NCBI GenBank assembly: GCA_965219575.1
Contig: OZ244779.1
Coordinates: forward strand, 1,484,769 to 1,548,768
DNA: 64,000 bases
Source: Candidatus Oxydemutatoraceae bacterium
GTDB lineage: Bacteria; Pseudomonadota; Gammaproteobacteria; Poriferisulfidales; Oxydemutatoraceae
Direction of reading: 5' to 3'
The notes under the pieces are model-generated. The model did no database searches, had not been told where the DNA came from, and saw nothing but the letters and a program-made list of their open reading frames with translations. Within the stretch, counting starts at the first letter, position 1. Each line of letters starts with the position of its first letter. Below are positions 34,538 through 38,929 of this stretch, piece by piece. Position numbers and translations under genes: made by a program.

Positions 34538-35212
34538 ATGACAACACCTAACAGACATTTTAGAGGGGCGCATATTTCAAACAGGAAAATGGGAAGCTTA
34601 GTTATTTATAGAACCGAACGAAATACTGGCAAAGTAGATGTTGAGACTGGCGATGTGGATGTTGATATCAACGATCCGCTGGATAGTCTGCTAGGTTATG
34701 TTCTTTCATTTGTCCCTATTGATGAATCTATTACCGATAAAGGGGAGTTGGAAACCTACTTGGAAGATCCGCTAGAACCGATAAAAGAGATGTATGACGA
34801 TGACTTTATCCGTCATCACAAAACACGTTATGAAGCATTAAAAAAAGCAACCGCCGCAAACTCTAAAGGTTGGTACGTGTACTACTCTGGTGATGACCAA
34901 TGCTACGACACTACCAACACCAAGGAGCTTCTTATCTTGCTTTGTACGATCCTTAAAAGGAAATACCCGAAGTATGAATTTGCGATATTTTATGACCAAT
35001 TCACAGGGGACGGGTGTTACGATATGAAGGAGATATATTTTACTATTCGACACGAAGGCAAGATAAACTACAAAACGCTGAAAGCAAAACTACCGCTTTA
35101 TTATAGCGATACCGTGTTGACATGGTATATAAAACAGCTGTCTGAACTTGGTTTGGTAAACGTTGAGTTGAGTAAAGCAGAGCCTCACAAAATTATATCA
35201 GTTAAGGCTTAG
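34538..35212 (+). CDS. Hypothetical protein (orphan, Asp/Tyr-rich)
   Basis: 224-aa ORF filling the gap between the MITE and dif; no family recognised. Confidence 0.7.
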   Translation: MTTPNRHFRGAHISNRKMGSLVIYRTERNTGKVDVETGDVDVDINDPLDSLLGYVLSFVPIDESITDKGELETYLEDPLEPIKEMYDDDFIRHHKTRYEALKKATAANSKGWYVYYSGDDQCYDTTNTKELLILLCTILKRKYPKYEFAIFYDQFTGDGCYDMKEIYFTIRHEGKINYKTLKAKLPLYYSDTVLTWYIKQLSELGLVNVELSKAEPHKIISVKA

Positions 35213-35301: not shown

Positions 35302-36201
35302 CTATGCAGTAAGGGCTTCAATTCGTTGCTCTGCTTTGCGGGCTATCTCAATATCTATCTCGGTACCGACGAAGTCTCTGTTTTCTAAACGTGCCGCAAC
35401 ACCGGTTGACCCCGATCCTGCAAAAGGATCAAAAACTACGGCGTTCTCGGGAGAAAAAATGCGTATTAGATGTTGTAGCAAATCGACTGGTTTTGTTGTC
35501 ATATGACCATGCCTTCGTCGTGGTTTTTGAGCAGCAATCACCGTTCCGGGAAAGCGATCAGGGTCTATTAACGGGTCGTGCGGATCAATCAAACCGGTTT
35601 CCCATTTGTCCCAATTATCAACGAATGTTCCCTCTCGCGGTGCTTGAGCCATTACGATTAATTCGCATTGTGGTTTGAGTTGCGGAGTTTTTCTCCCTCC
35701 AAGTTTTTTTATTAACCTCTTTTTTTCGGATTCCGGGATACGCCGCTTATGGATAAAATGTTCCTGTGAAAATGCCTTCGCTTGACCTTCATAACGCCAT
35801 ACAAAAATATCTCTAATCTCAAAACCGGCCATTTCTATAGCCATAGCTGTGCGGTGTACGAGACGATTTTGCGCAAAGCAAAGAATAAATCCGCCGGGTT
35901 TAATCAATCTTATCCATTCGCTTGCGATAGGCTGCAGGAATGATTGTAGTCTTTCGCCTTGCGTCACATCAAATTTCATTCCCACGGGCAAAGACCCAAC
36001 CACACCACCGGGTCTTAATCTACGCGCAAGGCTATCGTTATTCCACTCATCCCCCATTCCATCGATAAAATAAGGTGGATCGGTCACGATAAGAGAAACA
36101 CTCGAGTCTTTCATTGTCGGCATATGTTTGCGACAATCCTTTGCTATGACCCAATGCGATTGTTTTTGTTTTCTTGGCTTGGCGGAAGGTTGGGGTTGCA
36201 T
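35302..36201 (-). CDS. DNA methyltransferase (N6-adenine/N4-cytosine, beta class), solitary
   Basis: Motif IV TDPPY is N-terminal; H.T.KP and motif I DPFAGSGST are C-terminal. Confidence 0.92.
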   Translation of the reverse strand: MQPQPSAKPRKQKQSHWVIAKDCRKHMPTMKDSSVSLIVTDPPYFIDGMGDEWNNDSLARRLRPGGVVGSLPVGMKFDVTQGERLQSFLQPIASEWIRLIKPGGFILCFAQNRLVHRTAMAIEMAGFEIRDIFVWRYEGQAKAFSQEHFIHKRRIPESEKKRLIKKLGGRKTPQLKPQCELIVMAQAPREGTFVDNWDKWETGLIDPHDPLIDPDRFPGTVIAAQKPRRRHGHMTTKPVDLLQHLIRIFSPENAVVFDPFAGSGSTGVAARLENRDFVGTEIDIEIARKAEQRIEALTA

Positions 36202-36329
36202 TTTATGTCGTTAGTTGTTGATTAAATATGCCTTGTTAATTCCGACTGACTCCCACCGGTTTATGGCCGGCAATCGTTGAACACTATACAGCATAAAACA
36301 GAATATCCAATATCAGAACGAAAATAGAT

Positions 36330-36428
36330 TTGACATTTTCATAAAGTTCATGTTATAAATAGTTCTTTATTGCCTCCCTCTAAGGCGATAAATCTTAGAT
36401 CTAAGATACATTTAATTTATTAAAGGAG
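36330..36428 (+). promoter_or_regulatory. Strong-looking sigma70 promoter and SD for the Met-rich lipoprotein
   Basis: TTGACA (36330-36335), 18-nt spacer ending in TGT, TATAAA (36354-36359); AAGGAG at 36423-36428. Confidence 0.55.
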
Positions 36429-36436
36429 TTTAAACA

Positions 36437-36748
36437 ATGAAGAAATATTTAATTGCAATGCTTGCTACAGCGACAGTGTCTTTAGCAGGTTGTGGTATGA
36501 TGTCGGAAGACCAAATGATGATGATGGAAAATCAAACGATGATGATGGAAGAAATGAGTGCTCAGATGAGTGAGATTCAATTCCAAGTCAACTCTAATGC
36601 GGCGGCTGCGGCTAGTGCTAAAGATATGGCAAACGAAGCAATGATTAAAGCCTCCATGATGGACATGGACGGTCGCTCGATGACGCATGACCGTAACATG
36701 AAGATGCACGATCGTGGCATGATGCATAACAGAGACATGATGAAATAA
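36437..36748 (+). CDS. Met-rich Lpp/OprI-like lipoprotein
   Basis: Signal peptide with lipobox LAG-C19, Ala-zipper NAAAAASAKDMANEA, 25 Met in 103 aa and C-terminal Lys; convergent with an L,D-transpeptidase. Confidence 0.8.
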   Translation: MKKYLIAMLATATVSLAGCGMMSEDQMMMMENQTMMMEEMSAQMSEIQFQVNSNAAAAASAKDMANEAMIKASMMDMDGRSMTHDRNMKMHDRGMMHNRDMMK

Positions 36749-36775
36749 TTATAAAGATTTCATATATAGCAAAAT

Positions 36776-36807
36776 AGAAAAGGGGGCTTATTCAAGCCCC
36801 TTTTTCT
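36776..36807. terminator. Bidirectional intrinsic terminator
   Basis: AGAAAAGGGGGCTT-ATTC-AAGCCCCTTTTTCT between convergent genes. Confidence 0.85.
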
Positions 36808-36813
36808 TAGCCG

Positions 36814-37770
36814 TCAAAAGATGTAATCCCTCTTTTTCTTAAACTGGTTCGCTCTCTCTATCCTAACCAACTCTAAAGGATAATCCCCTAAATTAACAGC
36901 CGTCGGGATGCCTCGTGACTCCTTGGCTATTCGTATGAATTTCTCCCAATCTATACTGATAGATTTGCCTTCCGATAACTTACTCATGGTTATAATTGCT
37001 TGGCCTAAATAATCGGCCAGTATCCGAGGATCGTCACCGTCGTGAGCCTCTAGATAAGCTATACCGTCATCGATAGCAACCTTAAAAGGTTCATATTTAA
37101 TCGTCACCGAAGTCTGACGCGGTGTTTTATCGAATAGTACCTCGATGTCTGCCGGACGCATTCGTATGCATCCGTGCGTTACCCGCATGCCGATACCTTC
37201 GGGACGATTCGTTCCGTGTATGAAGTAGCTCGGTAAATCCAACTGCAGTGCATATTTTCCCAGTGGATTATCGTCTCCGGGCGGCACCGATGCCGGAAGT
37301 ATATCGCCCCTCAAAGCATGTTGCTCTCTTACGCTTTCCGGTGGATACCATGTCGGATTTACCAATTTATCGATAACTTTAGCATTCGCACGAGGGGTCA
37401 ACCAATCACCCTGCCCTATGCTGATCGGATAAGTGTCTACCGAATTTTCCTCGATATAATGGTATATACGCATTTCCGCTAGATTGATATAAATACCTTT
37501 GTAATCCGGTTGTGGCAATATGAAGCGACCGGGCAAAATGATCGTGCTATTCTCTCTCGGGACCCAAGCATCCAGATTCGGATTGGCAACTCTCATTTCG
37601 TCGTAGCCGAGTGAATATTGCTGTGCTAAGGCAACAAAAGTATCGTCGGGTTGTGCGGTGACACTACGCAACGAACCTACTATAATATGTTCCGGATCGT
37701 AACTGAAGTTTTCAGCCTCGGCAACACCGACCAGACCAAGTACTAAAACTGTTTTTAATAGATAAATCAT
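36814..37770 (-). CDS. L,D-transpeptidase (ErfK/YcfS/YnhG family, LysM-like N-terminus)
   Basis: Signal peptide, ANPNLDAWVP, INLAEMRIY, NPTWYPP, PGDDNPLG and catalytic IHGTN...THGCIRM. Confidence 0.95.
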   Translation of the reverse strand: MIYLLKTVLVLGLVGVAEAENFSYDPEHIIVGSLRSVTAQPDDTFVALAQQYSLGYDEMRVANPNLDAWVPRENSTIILPGRFILPQPDYKGIYINLAEMRIYHYIEENSVDTYPISIGQGDWLTPRANAKVIDKLVNPTWYPPESVREQHALRGDILPASVPPGDDNPLGKYALQLDLPSYFIHGTNRPEGIGMRVTHGCIRMRPADIEVLFDKTPRQTSVTIKYEPFKVAIDDGIAYLEAHDGDDPRILADYLGQAIITMSKLSEGKSISIDWEKFIRIAKESRGIPTAVNLGDYPLELVRIERANQFKKKRDYIF

Positions 37771-37771
37771 A

Positions 37772-38929
37772 GTGGATATTATAAAAGCAATCGTAGATGA
37801 ATTTCCACATACCGATATAATTCATCTAAATCATGCCGGCGTGGGTCGGTGGCCGATGCGCACCGTTCATGCGATACATCGCTTTGCCGAAGAGAACGCG
37901 CGATACGGTGCGATACATTCGCCGGATTGGTCTAAACATGCCTACACTTTGCGAGCCATGCTCACAAACTTGATCAATGCGAAAAGCGAAGATGAAATTG
38001 CCTTGCTCAAAAATACCTCGGAGGCTTTATCGCTTATCGCTTACGGCATAGATTGGCAAGCCAAGGATAATATCGTGGTCGGCAAGCAGGAATTTCCCTC
38101 TAATAGAATAGTTTGGGAGTCCTTGAAAAATACGCATGCCGTAGAAATACGGGTCGTTGACTTATATGCAGCAAAAACTCCCGAGCAAACATTGATCGAG
38201 GCAAGCGATGCGCATACTCGTTTGATTGCGGTTAGTTCCATACAATACGCAACAGGCTATCGCATGGATCTAAATTACTTAGGTCGGCATTGCCGCACTG
38301 CCGATATTCTGTTTTGCGTCGATGCGATACAAAGTTTAGGTGCAGCTGCAATAGATGTGCAGCATAGCTTCATTGATTTTTTAGCTGCCGATGCCCATAA
38401 ATGGTTATTGGCTCCCGAGGGTATCGCCCTGCTCTATTGCAAAGACCTACATATACCCAAATTAAAATTAAACCAGTACGGTTGGAATATGATGGACGAT
38501 TGCAATAATTACGATGCGCTATATAACGAAGCCGATATAATGAAATGGCAACTCAAAGCAAATGCACAGCGTTTTGAATGTGGTAGCTTGAATCATCTAG
38601 GTATTTATGCATTGCATGCCAGCTTGGCTTTGTTGATGGAAATCGGTCCTGCCGAGATATATAGTCGGATTGCCCTGAATGTCGGTTATTTGGCAAAGCA
38701 CCTAGACCGAAACCGATTTGTACCGCTTACACCCGATGATAAAGCCCGACGCGGCGGTATCTTCACGTTTAAGTCATTGAGACGAGATACTAAAACCTTG
38801 TTTAAGCATCTTATCGAAAATAAGGTATTTTGCGCTTATCGCGGTGGTGGCATACGCTTGTCTCCGCATTTTTACAATAAAGCCGAGGATTTAGATACGG
38901 TGCTTGAAATACTACACGAAAACAGTTAA
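37772..38929 (+). CDS. Class V PLP-dependent aminotransferase / cysteine desulfurase-like
   Basis: LNHAG, NTSEAL, EFPSN, VDAIQSLG, ADAHKWLLAPEG and IRLSPHFYN. Confidence 0.9.
   Translation: MDIIKAIVDEFPHTDIIHLNHAGVGRWPMRTVHAIHRFAEENARYGAIHSPDWSKHAYTLRAMLTNLINAKSEDEIALLKNTSEALSLIAYGIDWQAKDNIVVGKQEFPSNRIVWESLKNTHAVEIRVVDLYAAKTPEQTLIEASDAHTRLIAVSSIQYATGYRMDLNYLGRHCRTADILFCVDAIQSLGAAAIDVQHSFIDFLAADAHKWLLAPEGIALLYCKDLHIPKLKLNQYGWNMMDDCNNYDALYNEADIMKWQLKANAQRFECGSLNHLGIYALHASLALLMEIGPAEIYSRIALNVGYLAKHLDRNRFVPLTPDDKARRGGIFTFKSLRRDTKTLFKHLIENKVFCAYRGGGIRLSPHFYNKAEDLDTVLEILHENS

Follow-up and report, generated by a model that had tools for sequence, protein, structure and literature searches.

A gene for a highly methionine-rich lipoprotein was found in a 64-kb stretch of contig OZ244779.1 from a Candidatus Oxydemutatoraceae bacterium (GenBank assembly GCA_965219575.1), the genome of which is a single contig of 2.37 Mb (labelled G000). 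The stretch as a whole is referred to here as the window, and coordinates are positions within it unless a genome position is named. The lipoprotein gene is convergent with a gene for a predicted L,D-transpeptidase (LDT), which is followed by an aminotransferase gene. The product is likely to be a Braun/OprI-type tether, and its load of methionine (Met) suggests, without proof, that this tether also takes up copper or oxidants.

The open reading frame (ORF) at 36437–36748 on the forward strand has 103 codons and encodes a lipoprotein of 103 amino acids (aa). A signal peptide of 18 residues (36437–36490, +) ends in the lipobox residues L-A-G ahead of Cys19 (36491–36493), and the mature part of 85 aa contains 23 Met, 10 Ala, 3 His and 4 Lys, one of the latter being the final residue. 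Met is found in runs, MMMM at aa 27–30 and MMM at aa 35–37. With a Met share of 23.5% the protein ranks first among the 7,728 ORFs of at least 60 aa in the genome, for which the average share is 2.0% over the 1,356 ORFs of at least 200 aa; for comparison, E. coli Lpp has 2 Met per 58 mature residues.

Three parts were distinguished in the mature protein. The N-terminal Met block (aa 20–46; 36494–36574, +), delimited by mapping a trimer model onto the sequence, includes a tandem repeat of 21 nt, or one heptad, at 36497–36552 (2.7 copies with 82% matches, as detected by Tandem Repeats Finder, TRF). It is followed by an alanine-zipper core (aa 47–75; 36575–36661, +), recognised from the match to NCBIfam family NF040598 (aa 2–73) and from an hhalign comparison with low-Met alanine-zipper proteins, and by a tail rich in Met, His and Arg (aa 76–103, DMDGRSMTHDRNMKMHDRGMMHNRDMMK; 36662–36748 with the stop codon, +), which ends in the invariant Lys103. 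A preliminary description of this locus, made from the letters of the DNA, had noted the LAGC lipobox (LAG|C, aa 16–19), the 85-residue mature part with 23 Met and its MMMM and MMM runs, an alanine zipper and the C-terminal Lys, all of which stand. It had also described the tail as built of seven-residue His/Met repeats; the units RSMTHD, RNMKMHD, RGMMHN and RDMMK are present, but with periods of 6, 7 and 6 they do not keep strictly to seven, and no DNA repeat was detected by TRF in the tail.

A His-rich ORF of 81 aa lies antisense to the gene (36482–36727). It was rejected as a real gene: its His codons mirror the ATG runs, as CAT complements ATG, and it is the forward frame that has a Shine-Dalgarno sequence, a lipobox, homologues and conserved synteny.

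The convergent neighbour (36814–37770, −) encodes a protein of 318 aa with a signal peptide, a weak LysM match and a YkuD domain (PF03734; 75.2 bits, cut-off 23.4) with predicted catalytic residues His185 and Cys201 and the motifs HGT185 and THGCIR198–203. It is 38–43% identical to each of E. coli LdtA, LdtB, LdtC and LdtE, so that the ErfK/YcfS-type LDT named earlier as the partner of the lipoprotein agrees with domain, motifs and identity alike. A finer assignment is not given by these data, as the protein reached neither the Lpp-attaching nor the cross-linking equivalog level: it scored 172.2, 154.4 and 152.3 bits with PRK10190, LdtE and PRK10260, for which the cut-offs are 517, 480 and 583, and in a phylogeny of 22 sequences LdtA, LdtB, LdtC and LdtE of E. 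coli grouped in one clade (98/100) that did not include the lipoprotein-linked LDTs of this order. The division of labour among LdtA, LdtB, LdtC and LdtE is therefore not transferable to the neighbour, which is co-orthologous to the E. coli enzymes that attach Lpp as well as to those that make cross-links. The genome has four YkuD genes. The other three are on very long branches and were classified by NCBIfam as a weak DpaA-like protein, an ElsL-like carboxypeptidase and one unclassified protein; since these classes differ, the neighbour is the only ErfK-type LDT of the genome.

The preliminary description had called for a synteny check, and the pairing of the two genes was found to be conserved. 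The order lipoprotein, convergent LDT and class-V aminotransferase (37772–38929, +; PF00266, 163 bits) is kept in 11 of 11 related loci retrieved with a Met-rich profile (A1). Among 20 loci retrieved with NF040598 in two families, the LDT lies beside the lipoprotein in 19 and the aminotransferase beyond the LDT in 18, and lipoprotein and LDT are paired in 30 of the 31 loci overall, although the two sets overlap. The same convergent pair occurs in E. coli K-12, with lpp at 1757421–1757657 (+) and ldtE at 1757721–1758725 (−), as the earlier statement that lpp lies next to an LDT gene requires, and the gene of the window is thus the positional counterpart of lpp.

Relatives of the lipoprotein were collected at several depths. 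The best match of the protein itself was NF040598, the Lpp/OprI alanine-zipper family (25.7 bits, E 1.2e-5; cut-off 43). Homologues at E ≤ 0.01 numbered 40 in a search of 5.8 billion proteins, and only 8 were recovered at E ≤ 0.001 when 1.84 billion cluster representatives were searched exhaustively, so that the Met-rich form is narrowly distributed. For comparison at the level of the order, a set of 41 genomes was used, of which 11 had matches to profile A1 and 27 had matches to NF040598 at E ≤ 0.01, none of them above the cut-off; 19 orthologues were collected from the two kinds of matches. NF040598 was the best NCBIfam family for all 19, always below its cut-off, while PF11839 (Alanine_zipper) matched eight of them, the highest score (27.6 bits, genome G007) being above the 23.1-bit cut-off. 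Four columns of the alignment of the 19 orthologues are invariant, namely the start Met, the lipobox Gly, the lipidated Cys and the C-terminal Lys. In a wider search with the profile of the 19 orthologues, 163 proteins were found at E ≤ 0.001, of which at least 120 were listed; the lipobox is present in 124 of 126 wider homologues shorter than 200 aa, Lys ends 117 and MMK ends 66 of the 126. When the Met-rich set was compared by hhalign with 17 PF11839-bearing low-Met proteins, the probability was 78.6% (E 1.7e-5), and the Atlas look-alikes shown were Lpp or alanine-zipper clusters (0.90–0.91), which serves as a lead only.

The nearest named relatives among the matches listed come from uncultured 'candidatus Porisulfidus' metagenome-assembled genomes, and a scan of contigs for the gene confirmed at least two loci. 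No report of a Met-rich Braun-type lipoprotein was found in full-text literature searches. The 'Ca. Porisulfidus' group has served as outgroup to the SUP05 sulfur oxidisers, according to the available part of PMC9123188.

Three mature chains modelled together with the alignment gave an ipSAE of 0.77 (median of three runs), compared with 0.00 for the best control; the pLDDT of the partners was at least 75 and at least 71% of the contacts were common between runs. In calibration, 20 of 30 homo-pairs of solved structure and 1 of 23 solved single chains came up to this ipSAE mark, counts that are only roughly valid for a trimer because the calibration used two copies and other alignments. Lpp trimer structures are already solved, and the pass may therefore show likeness to them rather than independent evidence. 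The contacts of lowest error pair identical residue numbers (47-47, 51-51, 54-54, 58-58, 61-61 and 65-65), which indicates a parallel bundle in register, so that the coiled-coil trimer asked for by the preliminary description is predicted, with the same reserve.

The predicted interface of the three copies includes M22, M30, Q33, M37, M40 and M44 of the N-terminal Met block, and I47, V51, N54, A57, A58, A61, K62, M64, A65, A68, M69, K71, A72 and M75 of the core, where A57, A58, A61, A65, A68 and A72 account for the alanine zipper. The model thus predicts a bundle with an alanine zipper as its C-terminal half and a Met-lined N-terminal half. Twelve of the 23 Met are in at least one interface list, and eight are in the interface of all three chains. 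The other 11 (M27, M28, M35, M77 and seven tail Met from 82 to 102) are in no confident interface list, and none of the eight tail Met is in any.

On these grounds the protein is probably a divergent member of the Lpp/OprI kind, an assignment based on orthology and architecture and not on a curated threshold. Several results count against it and have to be set beside those above. No Pfam family matches the protein, which is under every curated cut-off; Lpp was not retrieved when PDB sequences were searched with a profile, which gave only unrelated coiled coils at E ≥ 0.13; and the model of the monomer, all helix, is poor (pLDDT 54.6), for which reason a fold search from the monomer was dropped. 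Further, adjacency to an LDT gene is no proof of attachment, because LdtE, which lies beside lpp, does not attach Lpp, as far as the available part of PMC12729407 describes it.

The Met load is graded among the relatives. In the mature parts of 124 lipoproteins the Met share ranges from 3.9% to 30.3%. Counted as Met per mature residues, it is 5–6 in 77–87 in family f2, 5–7 in 58–64 in genus g4, 12 in 67 in g6, 15 in 89 in g5, 13–15 in 61–63 in g2, 20 in 83 in g3 and 14–23 in 64–85 in the genus of the window. Conservation reaches at least 90% at five positions (M22, M27, M29, M40 and M64) in the 41 Met-rich homologues, whose consensus end is HMMHxKxMMK, the tails of relatives being shorter. The earlier suggestion to examine homologues for their Met content therefore gave a load both conserved and graded. 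Low-Met orthologues have Leu, Val and Ile at the same core positions. The extra heptad of 21 nt occurs in G000 and G001 and is missing from G002, G003 and G004; G006 has five MMH units at the N terminus, and G012 has a MMKDDMMKGDMMK tail. The Met additions thus have separate origins in different lineages, and the load looks as if it were selected, because it has grown by in-frame repeats at different places in separate lineages.

Two further observations were made on these relatives. Low-Met orthologues (f2 loci L019–L037 and proteins P0099–P0127) have in common, close to their C terminus, the conserved motif ACCDANS(H/R)R, in which two Cys are adjacent and which is absent from the Met-rich forms. 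Three of the four g2 and g3 loci scanned have, upstream of the gene, an element that contains CATTATGCGAA; it follows an unrelated 257-aa gene and led nowhere.

The lipoprotein gene is preceded by a promoter-like site (36330–36359, +), read from the sequence as TTGACA (36330–36335), a spacer of 18 nt, TG (36351–36352) and TATAAA (36354–36359). The motif is kept in four of five loci of the same genus, the fifth having TTTGCA. A consensus promoter scan listed no promoters, because it requires T at the last position of the −10 hexamer. The 5' leader (36366–36436, +) is predicted to form two hairpins (36367–36391 and 36392–36407) and has the Shine-Dalgarno sequence AAGGAG (36423–36428) 8 nt ahead of the ATG. 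Its sequence is conserved within the genus, while its fold (−12.7 kcal/mol, z −1.52) is not significant on its own, since 14 of 200 shuffles were equally stable. A 16-nt palindrome in the leader, ATCTTAGATCTAAGAT, was considered as an operator and dropped: it occurs once in the genome, even with up to two mismatches allowed, and no regulon can be drawn from it for that reason.

Between the convergent stop codons a hairpin at 36776–36807 (−21.3 kcal/mol, z −4.4, a stability reached by none of 200 shuffles), preceded by a run of A and followed by a run of T, is common to both genes and would act as an intrinsic terminator in both directions. A terminator scan reports it on the reverse strand only. 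A comparable GC hairpin is found 3' of the gene in 11 of 11 related loci, and a search of Rfam over 36150–36900 gave nothing at the gathering score, its weak matches falling on the hairpin. The near-consensus promoter, the Shine-Dalgarno sequence and the shared bidirectional terminator of the preliminary description are accordingly all recognisable.

RNA-library contigs from one study cover the leader and the lipoprotein gene with no differences in two of three runs (36366–36733 and 36399–36784), and that of run X2 begins at 36366, 7 nt past the −10 hexamer; being assembled contigs, they are no proof of a transcript start, end, strand or level. The neighbouring genes were without cover in runs X1 and X2, and run X9 was without any cover, which says nothing on relative expression.

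The gene surroundings include a DNA methylase, the LDT and the aminotransferase, to which holB and tmk are added from inspection of the ORFs. Immediately before the lipoprotein gene, on its upstream side, there are an intact N6/N4 DNA methylase gene (35302–36201, −) and a 224-aa ORF with no assigned family (34538–35212, +). In G003 and G004, of the same genus, short frame-broken methylase remnants are present at that place. On the other side, the LDT start (ATG ending at 37770, −) and the aminotransferase start (GTG at 37772, +) are back to back as annotated; this leaves no room for a promoter, and one or both true starts may lie further in.

Taken together, these data are consistent with the following proposal. 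The gene would encode the Braun/OprI-type tether of this lineage, a lipidated coiled coil of three parallel chains in the outer membrane, the C-terminal Lys of which would most likely be joined to peptidoglycan by the convergent ErfK/YbiS/YcfS/YnhG-type LDT. In this clade of sulfur-oxidising Gammaproteobacteria the tether may have been progressively loaded with Met. In the N-terminal core of the model Met stands in place of Leu, Val or Ile, and M30, M37, M40 and M44 would form rings of three thioethers on the trimer axis; further Met would be spread over the helix surface, and the wall-side tail would present Met/His/Lys motifs. Such a dense, wall-anchored store of thioethers could bind soft metal ions, chiefly Cu(I), and keep them from local steps that depend on thiols, such as the catalytic Cys of the LDT and lipoprotein maturation, while exposed Met may also undergo oxidation by hypohalous acids and subsequent repair by MsrPQ. 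That the lipoprotein is linked to the wall, is abundant, binds metal and has a protective role is in each case inferred. The preliminary description had gone further, holding that the most abundant envelope tether was converted into a covalently anchored antioxidant or copper buffer. Its structural half fits the Lpp/OprI likeness, the predicted trimer, the Lys and the LDT pairing; the functional half is a proposal, and the wording is too strong, as abundance is presumed.

A wall-anchored tether that acts as a Cu(I) buffer is tentatively adopted here as the working reading, slightly favoured over an oxidant sink, and the two are not mutually exclusive. The lean toward a soft metal comes from the His that accompanies Met, from the Met rings on the predicted axis and from other metal-related proteins with Met/His and Cys repeats. 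His is found next to Met in the homologues as HMMH, MxH[DN] and DMMH repeats. The second most Met-rich ORF of the genome (G000:C1 419580–420185, +) encodes a secreted protein with 16.5% Met and about 14 HGDGMMKDA(D/G) repeats, and lies just upstream of an HvfA-type Cys-repeat metallophore precursor (420539–421039, +). The N-terminal parts that the two share are 41% identical (E 6e-27), and by sequence the metallophore precursor seems to have a tandem paralogue in which Met/His repeats replace the CGEGxCG repeats. The genome also encodes a CopA-type multicopper oxidase (682.7 bits; genome position 1,128.8–1,130.4 kb) with a Met/His insert, and a 235-aa ORF beside it, without an NCBIfam match, may be CopB by position. 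Copper inhibits L,D-transpeptidases and DpaA, according to the available part of bioRxiv 10.1101/2021.02.21.432140.

A CopA-type multicopper oxidase is encoded in most of the 41 genomes of the order; in the two families with the lipoprotein it was detected in 15 of 18 and in 6 of 11. A search of the genome of the window for CusF gave no match. A P-type ATPase domain (PF00122) had no match in it and matches in 14 of 14 control genomes, and a copper ATPase above the cut-off was found in none of the 41 genomes of the order and in 14 of 14 controls; these two negatives are counted in favour of the copper reading. The Pfam and NCBIfam scans of the lipoprotein list no copper family, and no search was aimed at SilE/PcoE. 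A correlation of msrP, the CopA-type oxidase or a copper ATPase with the Met load was tried and given up, as Met-rich and Met-poor lineages were not separated by it.

Several points weigh against the Cu(I) buffer. There is no copper gene or copper regulator site near the lipoprotein gene, and the copA/copB-like pair is about 390 kb away; the oxidase is present irrespective of the Met load and therefore does not discriminate. The very Met-rich homologues P0005, P0003 and P0009 have no His, and the tails of some relatives resemble the MXKDX pentapeptides of hypochlorite scavengers and not copper motifs. Met is in any case an ordinary residue of coiled-coil cores too. The MXKDX-like tails, the His-free homologues, the exposure of about half of the Met and the presence of msrPQ lean toward an oxidant.

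The best surviving alternative is that the wall-anchored tether serves as a sacrificial scavenger of HOCl, HOBr or chloramines, with its Met re-reduced by MsrPQ; we consider this possible but doubtful. It has precedents: according to the available parts of the respective reports, MrpX is a periplasmic Met-rich protein that is oxidised by hypochlorite and regenerated by a reductase of the YedY/MsrP type (PMC4436054), and BcrX is a Met-rich MXKDX repeat protein in an operon shared with msrQP (PMC8315932). The check for msrPQ suggested by the preliminary description found both genes, at genome position 869.4–871 kb, with scores above the cut-offs (msrP 461.6 bits, cut-off 207; msrQ 160.2 bits, cut-off 130), and msrP occurs in all 29 genomes from the two lipoprotein-carrying families and in none of the 11 from the small-genome families. 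The 11 Met outside every confident interface list would be open to oxidation, and units such as MMKDDMMKGDMMK in the tails of relatives are MXKDX-like. A linkage was not borne out, however. The lipoprotein gene, at genome position 1,521 kb, is about 650 kb from msrPQ, a distance that also counts against the Cu(I) reading; no msr gene lies near the lipoprotein gene and no Met-rich ORF beside msrPQ. Being universal in both families, and equally present where the orthologue has just 5–7 Met, msrP does not track the Met load. TIGR02953, the MXKDX family, did not match the lipoprotein at E ≤ 1 or any of the 19 orthologues at E ≤ 0.01, and its best score in the genome was no more than 14.5 bits, at another gene, so that the genome has no true MXKDX peptide by this profile. 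In its sequence the promoter resembles an ordinary strong sigma-70 site, unlike the extracytoplasmic function (ECF) type of mrpX and bcrX. Finally, in the model eight Met are in the interface of three chains, where access of a reductase would be poor and oxidation should unzip the tether, which argues against a purely sacrificial role.

In eight f2 genomes (G022, G024, G026, G030, G034, G036, G038 and G040) the lipoprotein gene lies 13–19 kb from msrP. The name of 'Ca. Porisulfidus' points, presumably and from the name alone, to a sponge host, which might supply oxidants for such a sink.

That Met has no chemical role, and is a flexible hydrophobic residue of the core and a filler of the linker, is an unlikely explanation. 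It would have ATG-rich repeats spread by slippage, with Met perhaps cheap for a sulfur oxidiser, and it accords with the 12 Met that are in an interface list, with blocks that are 21-nt or ATG-run repeats and vary among close relatives, and with the lack of linkage to a functional partner gene. Yet the proteome, with its mean of 2.0%, is not Met-rich; specific Met positions are at least 90% conserved among the 41 homologues; and different genera acquired their Met blocks on separate occasions, be it N-terminally, on the surface of the helix or in the tail, frequently along with His, while low-Met orthologues make the same core from Leu, Val and Ile.

The weakest alternative, in which the lipoprotein stays free, perhaps partly surface-exposed, and the LDT makes only 3-3 cross-links as LdtE does, draws on the available part of PMC12729407, where this positional counterpart cross-links and does not attach Lpp, and on an LDT that scores and tree assign to neither LdtA/B/C nor LdtE, but it is rendered improbable by a C-terminal Lys that is shared by all 19 orthologues and by 117 of the 126 wider homologues, and by an LDT that is the sole one of ErfK type in the genome and a predicted co-orthologue of Lpp-attaching enzymes too.

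Braun-type lipoproteins are usually seen as passive struts that set the width of the periplasm. A conserved subfamily in which Met makes up a quarter or more of the residues would add metal buffering or oxidant scavenging to the tether, with the Met load in the trimer core and in the wall-side tail, where copper- and oxidant-sensitive thiol enzymes work. It would do so in uncultured sulfur-oxidising bacteria, the envelope biology of which is otherwise out of reach. A bolder extension, which we regard as quite improbable, is that the Met layers M30, M37, M40, M44 and M75 form an axial stack of three-sulfur sites that load Cu(I) or Ag(I), so that metal or oxidation would shift the stability or the length of the tether. 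If true, the envelope would both store soft metal and sense it mechanically, a role undescribed for Braun-type lipoproteins.

Among known systems, periplasmic proteins that bind Cu(I) or Ag(I) by Met and His include CopA, PcoA and CueO, with their Met-rich inserts, CopB, PcoE/SilE and CusF, and Met triads occur in CusA and Ctr1. The lipoprotein has the MxxM, MxxxM and MxH motifs of such binders, its Met/His string is comparable to that of the CopA-type oxidase of the same genome, and its trimer model places Met in rings of three. It differs in that its gene is unlinked to cop or cus genes, and homology is not established. With MrpX of Azospira suillum and BcrX of Brucella it shares secretion, a very high Met content, Met units flanked by Lys and Asp, and the presence of MsrPQ in the genome. 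MrpX and BcrX are soluble, and their genes share an operon with msrQP that depends on an ECF sigma factor, whereas the lipoprotein is a predicted lipidated coiled coil with unlinked msrPQ, a sigma-70-like promoter and no match to TIGR02953 at E ≤ 0.01.

The LDT neighbour has the domain type and the catalytic motif of the E. coli enzymes. In that organism LdtA, LdtB and LdtC attach Lpp and LdtE forms 3-3 cross-links, according to the available part of PMC12729407.

The closest likeness is to Lpp and the families NF040598, PF11839 and PF04728. These and the lipoprotein of the window are lipobox lipoproteins of similar size with a heptad and alanine-zipper core and a C-terminal Lys; as with Lpp, the trimer is parallel, in this case by prediction, and the gene is convergent with that of an ErfK-type LDT. 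Identity to E. coli Lpp is 22.7% over 66 residues. The mature protein differs from Lpp in consisting of 27% Met instead of 3.4%, in having an N-terminal core that is lined by Met in the model, and in a Met/His tail that ends in MMK where Lpp ends in YRK.

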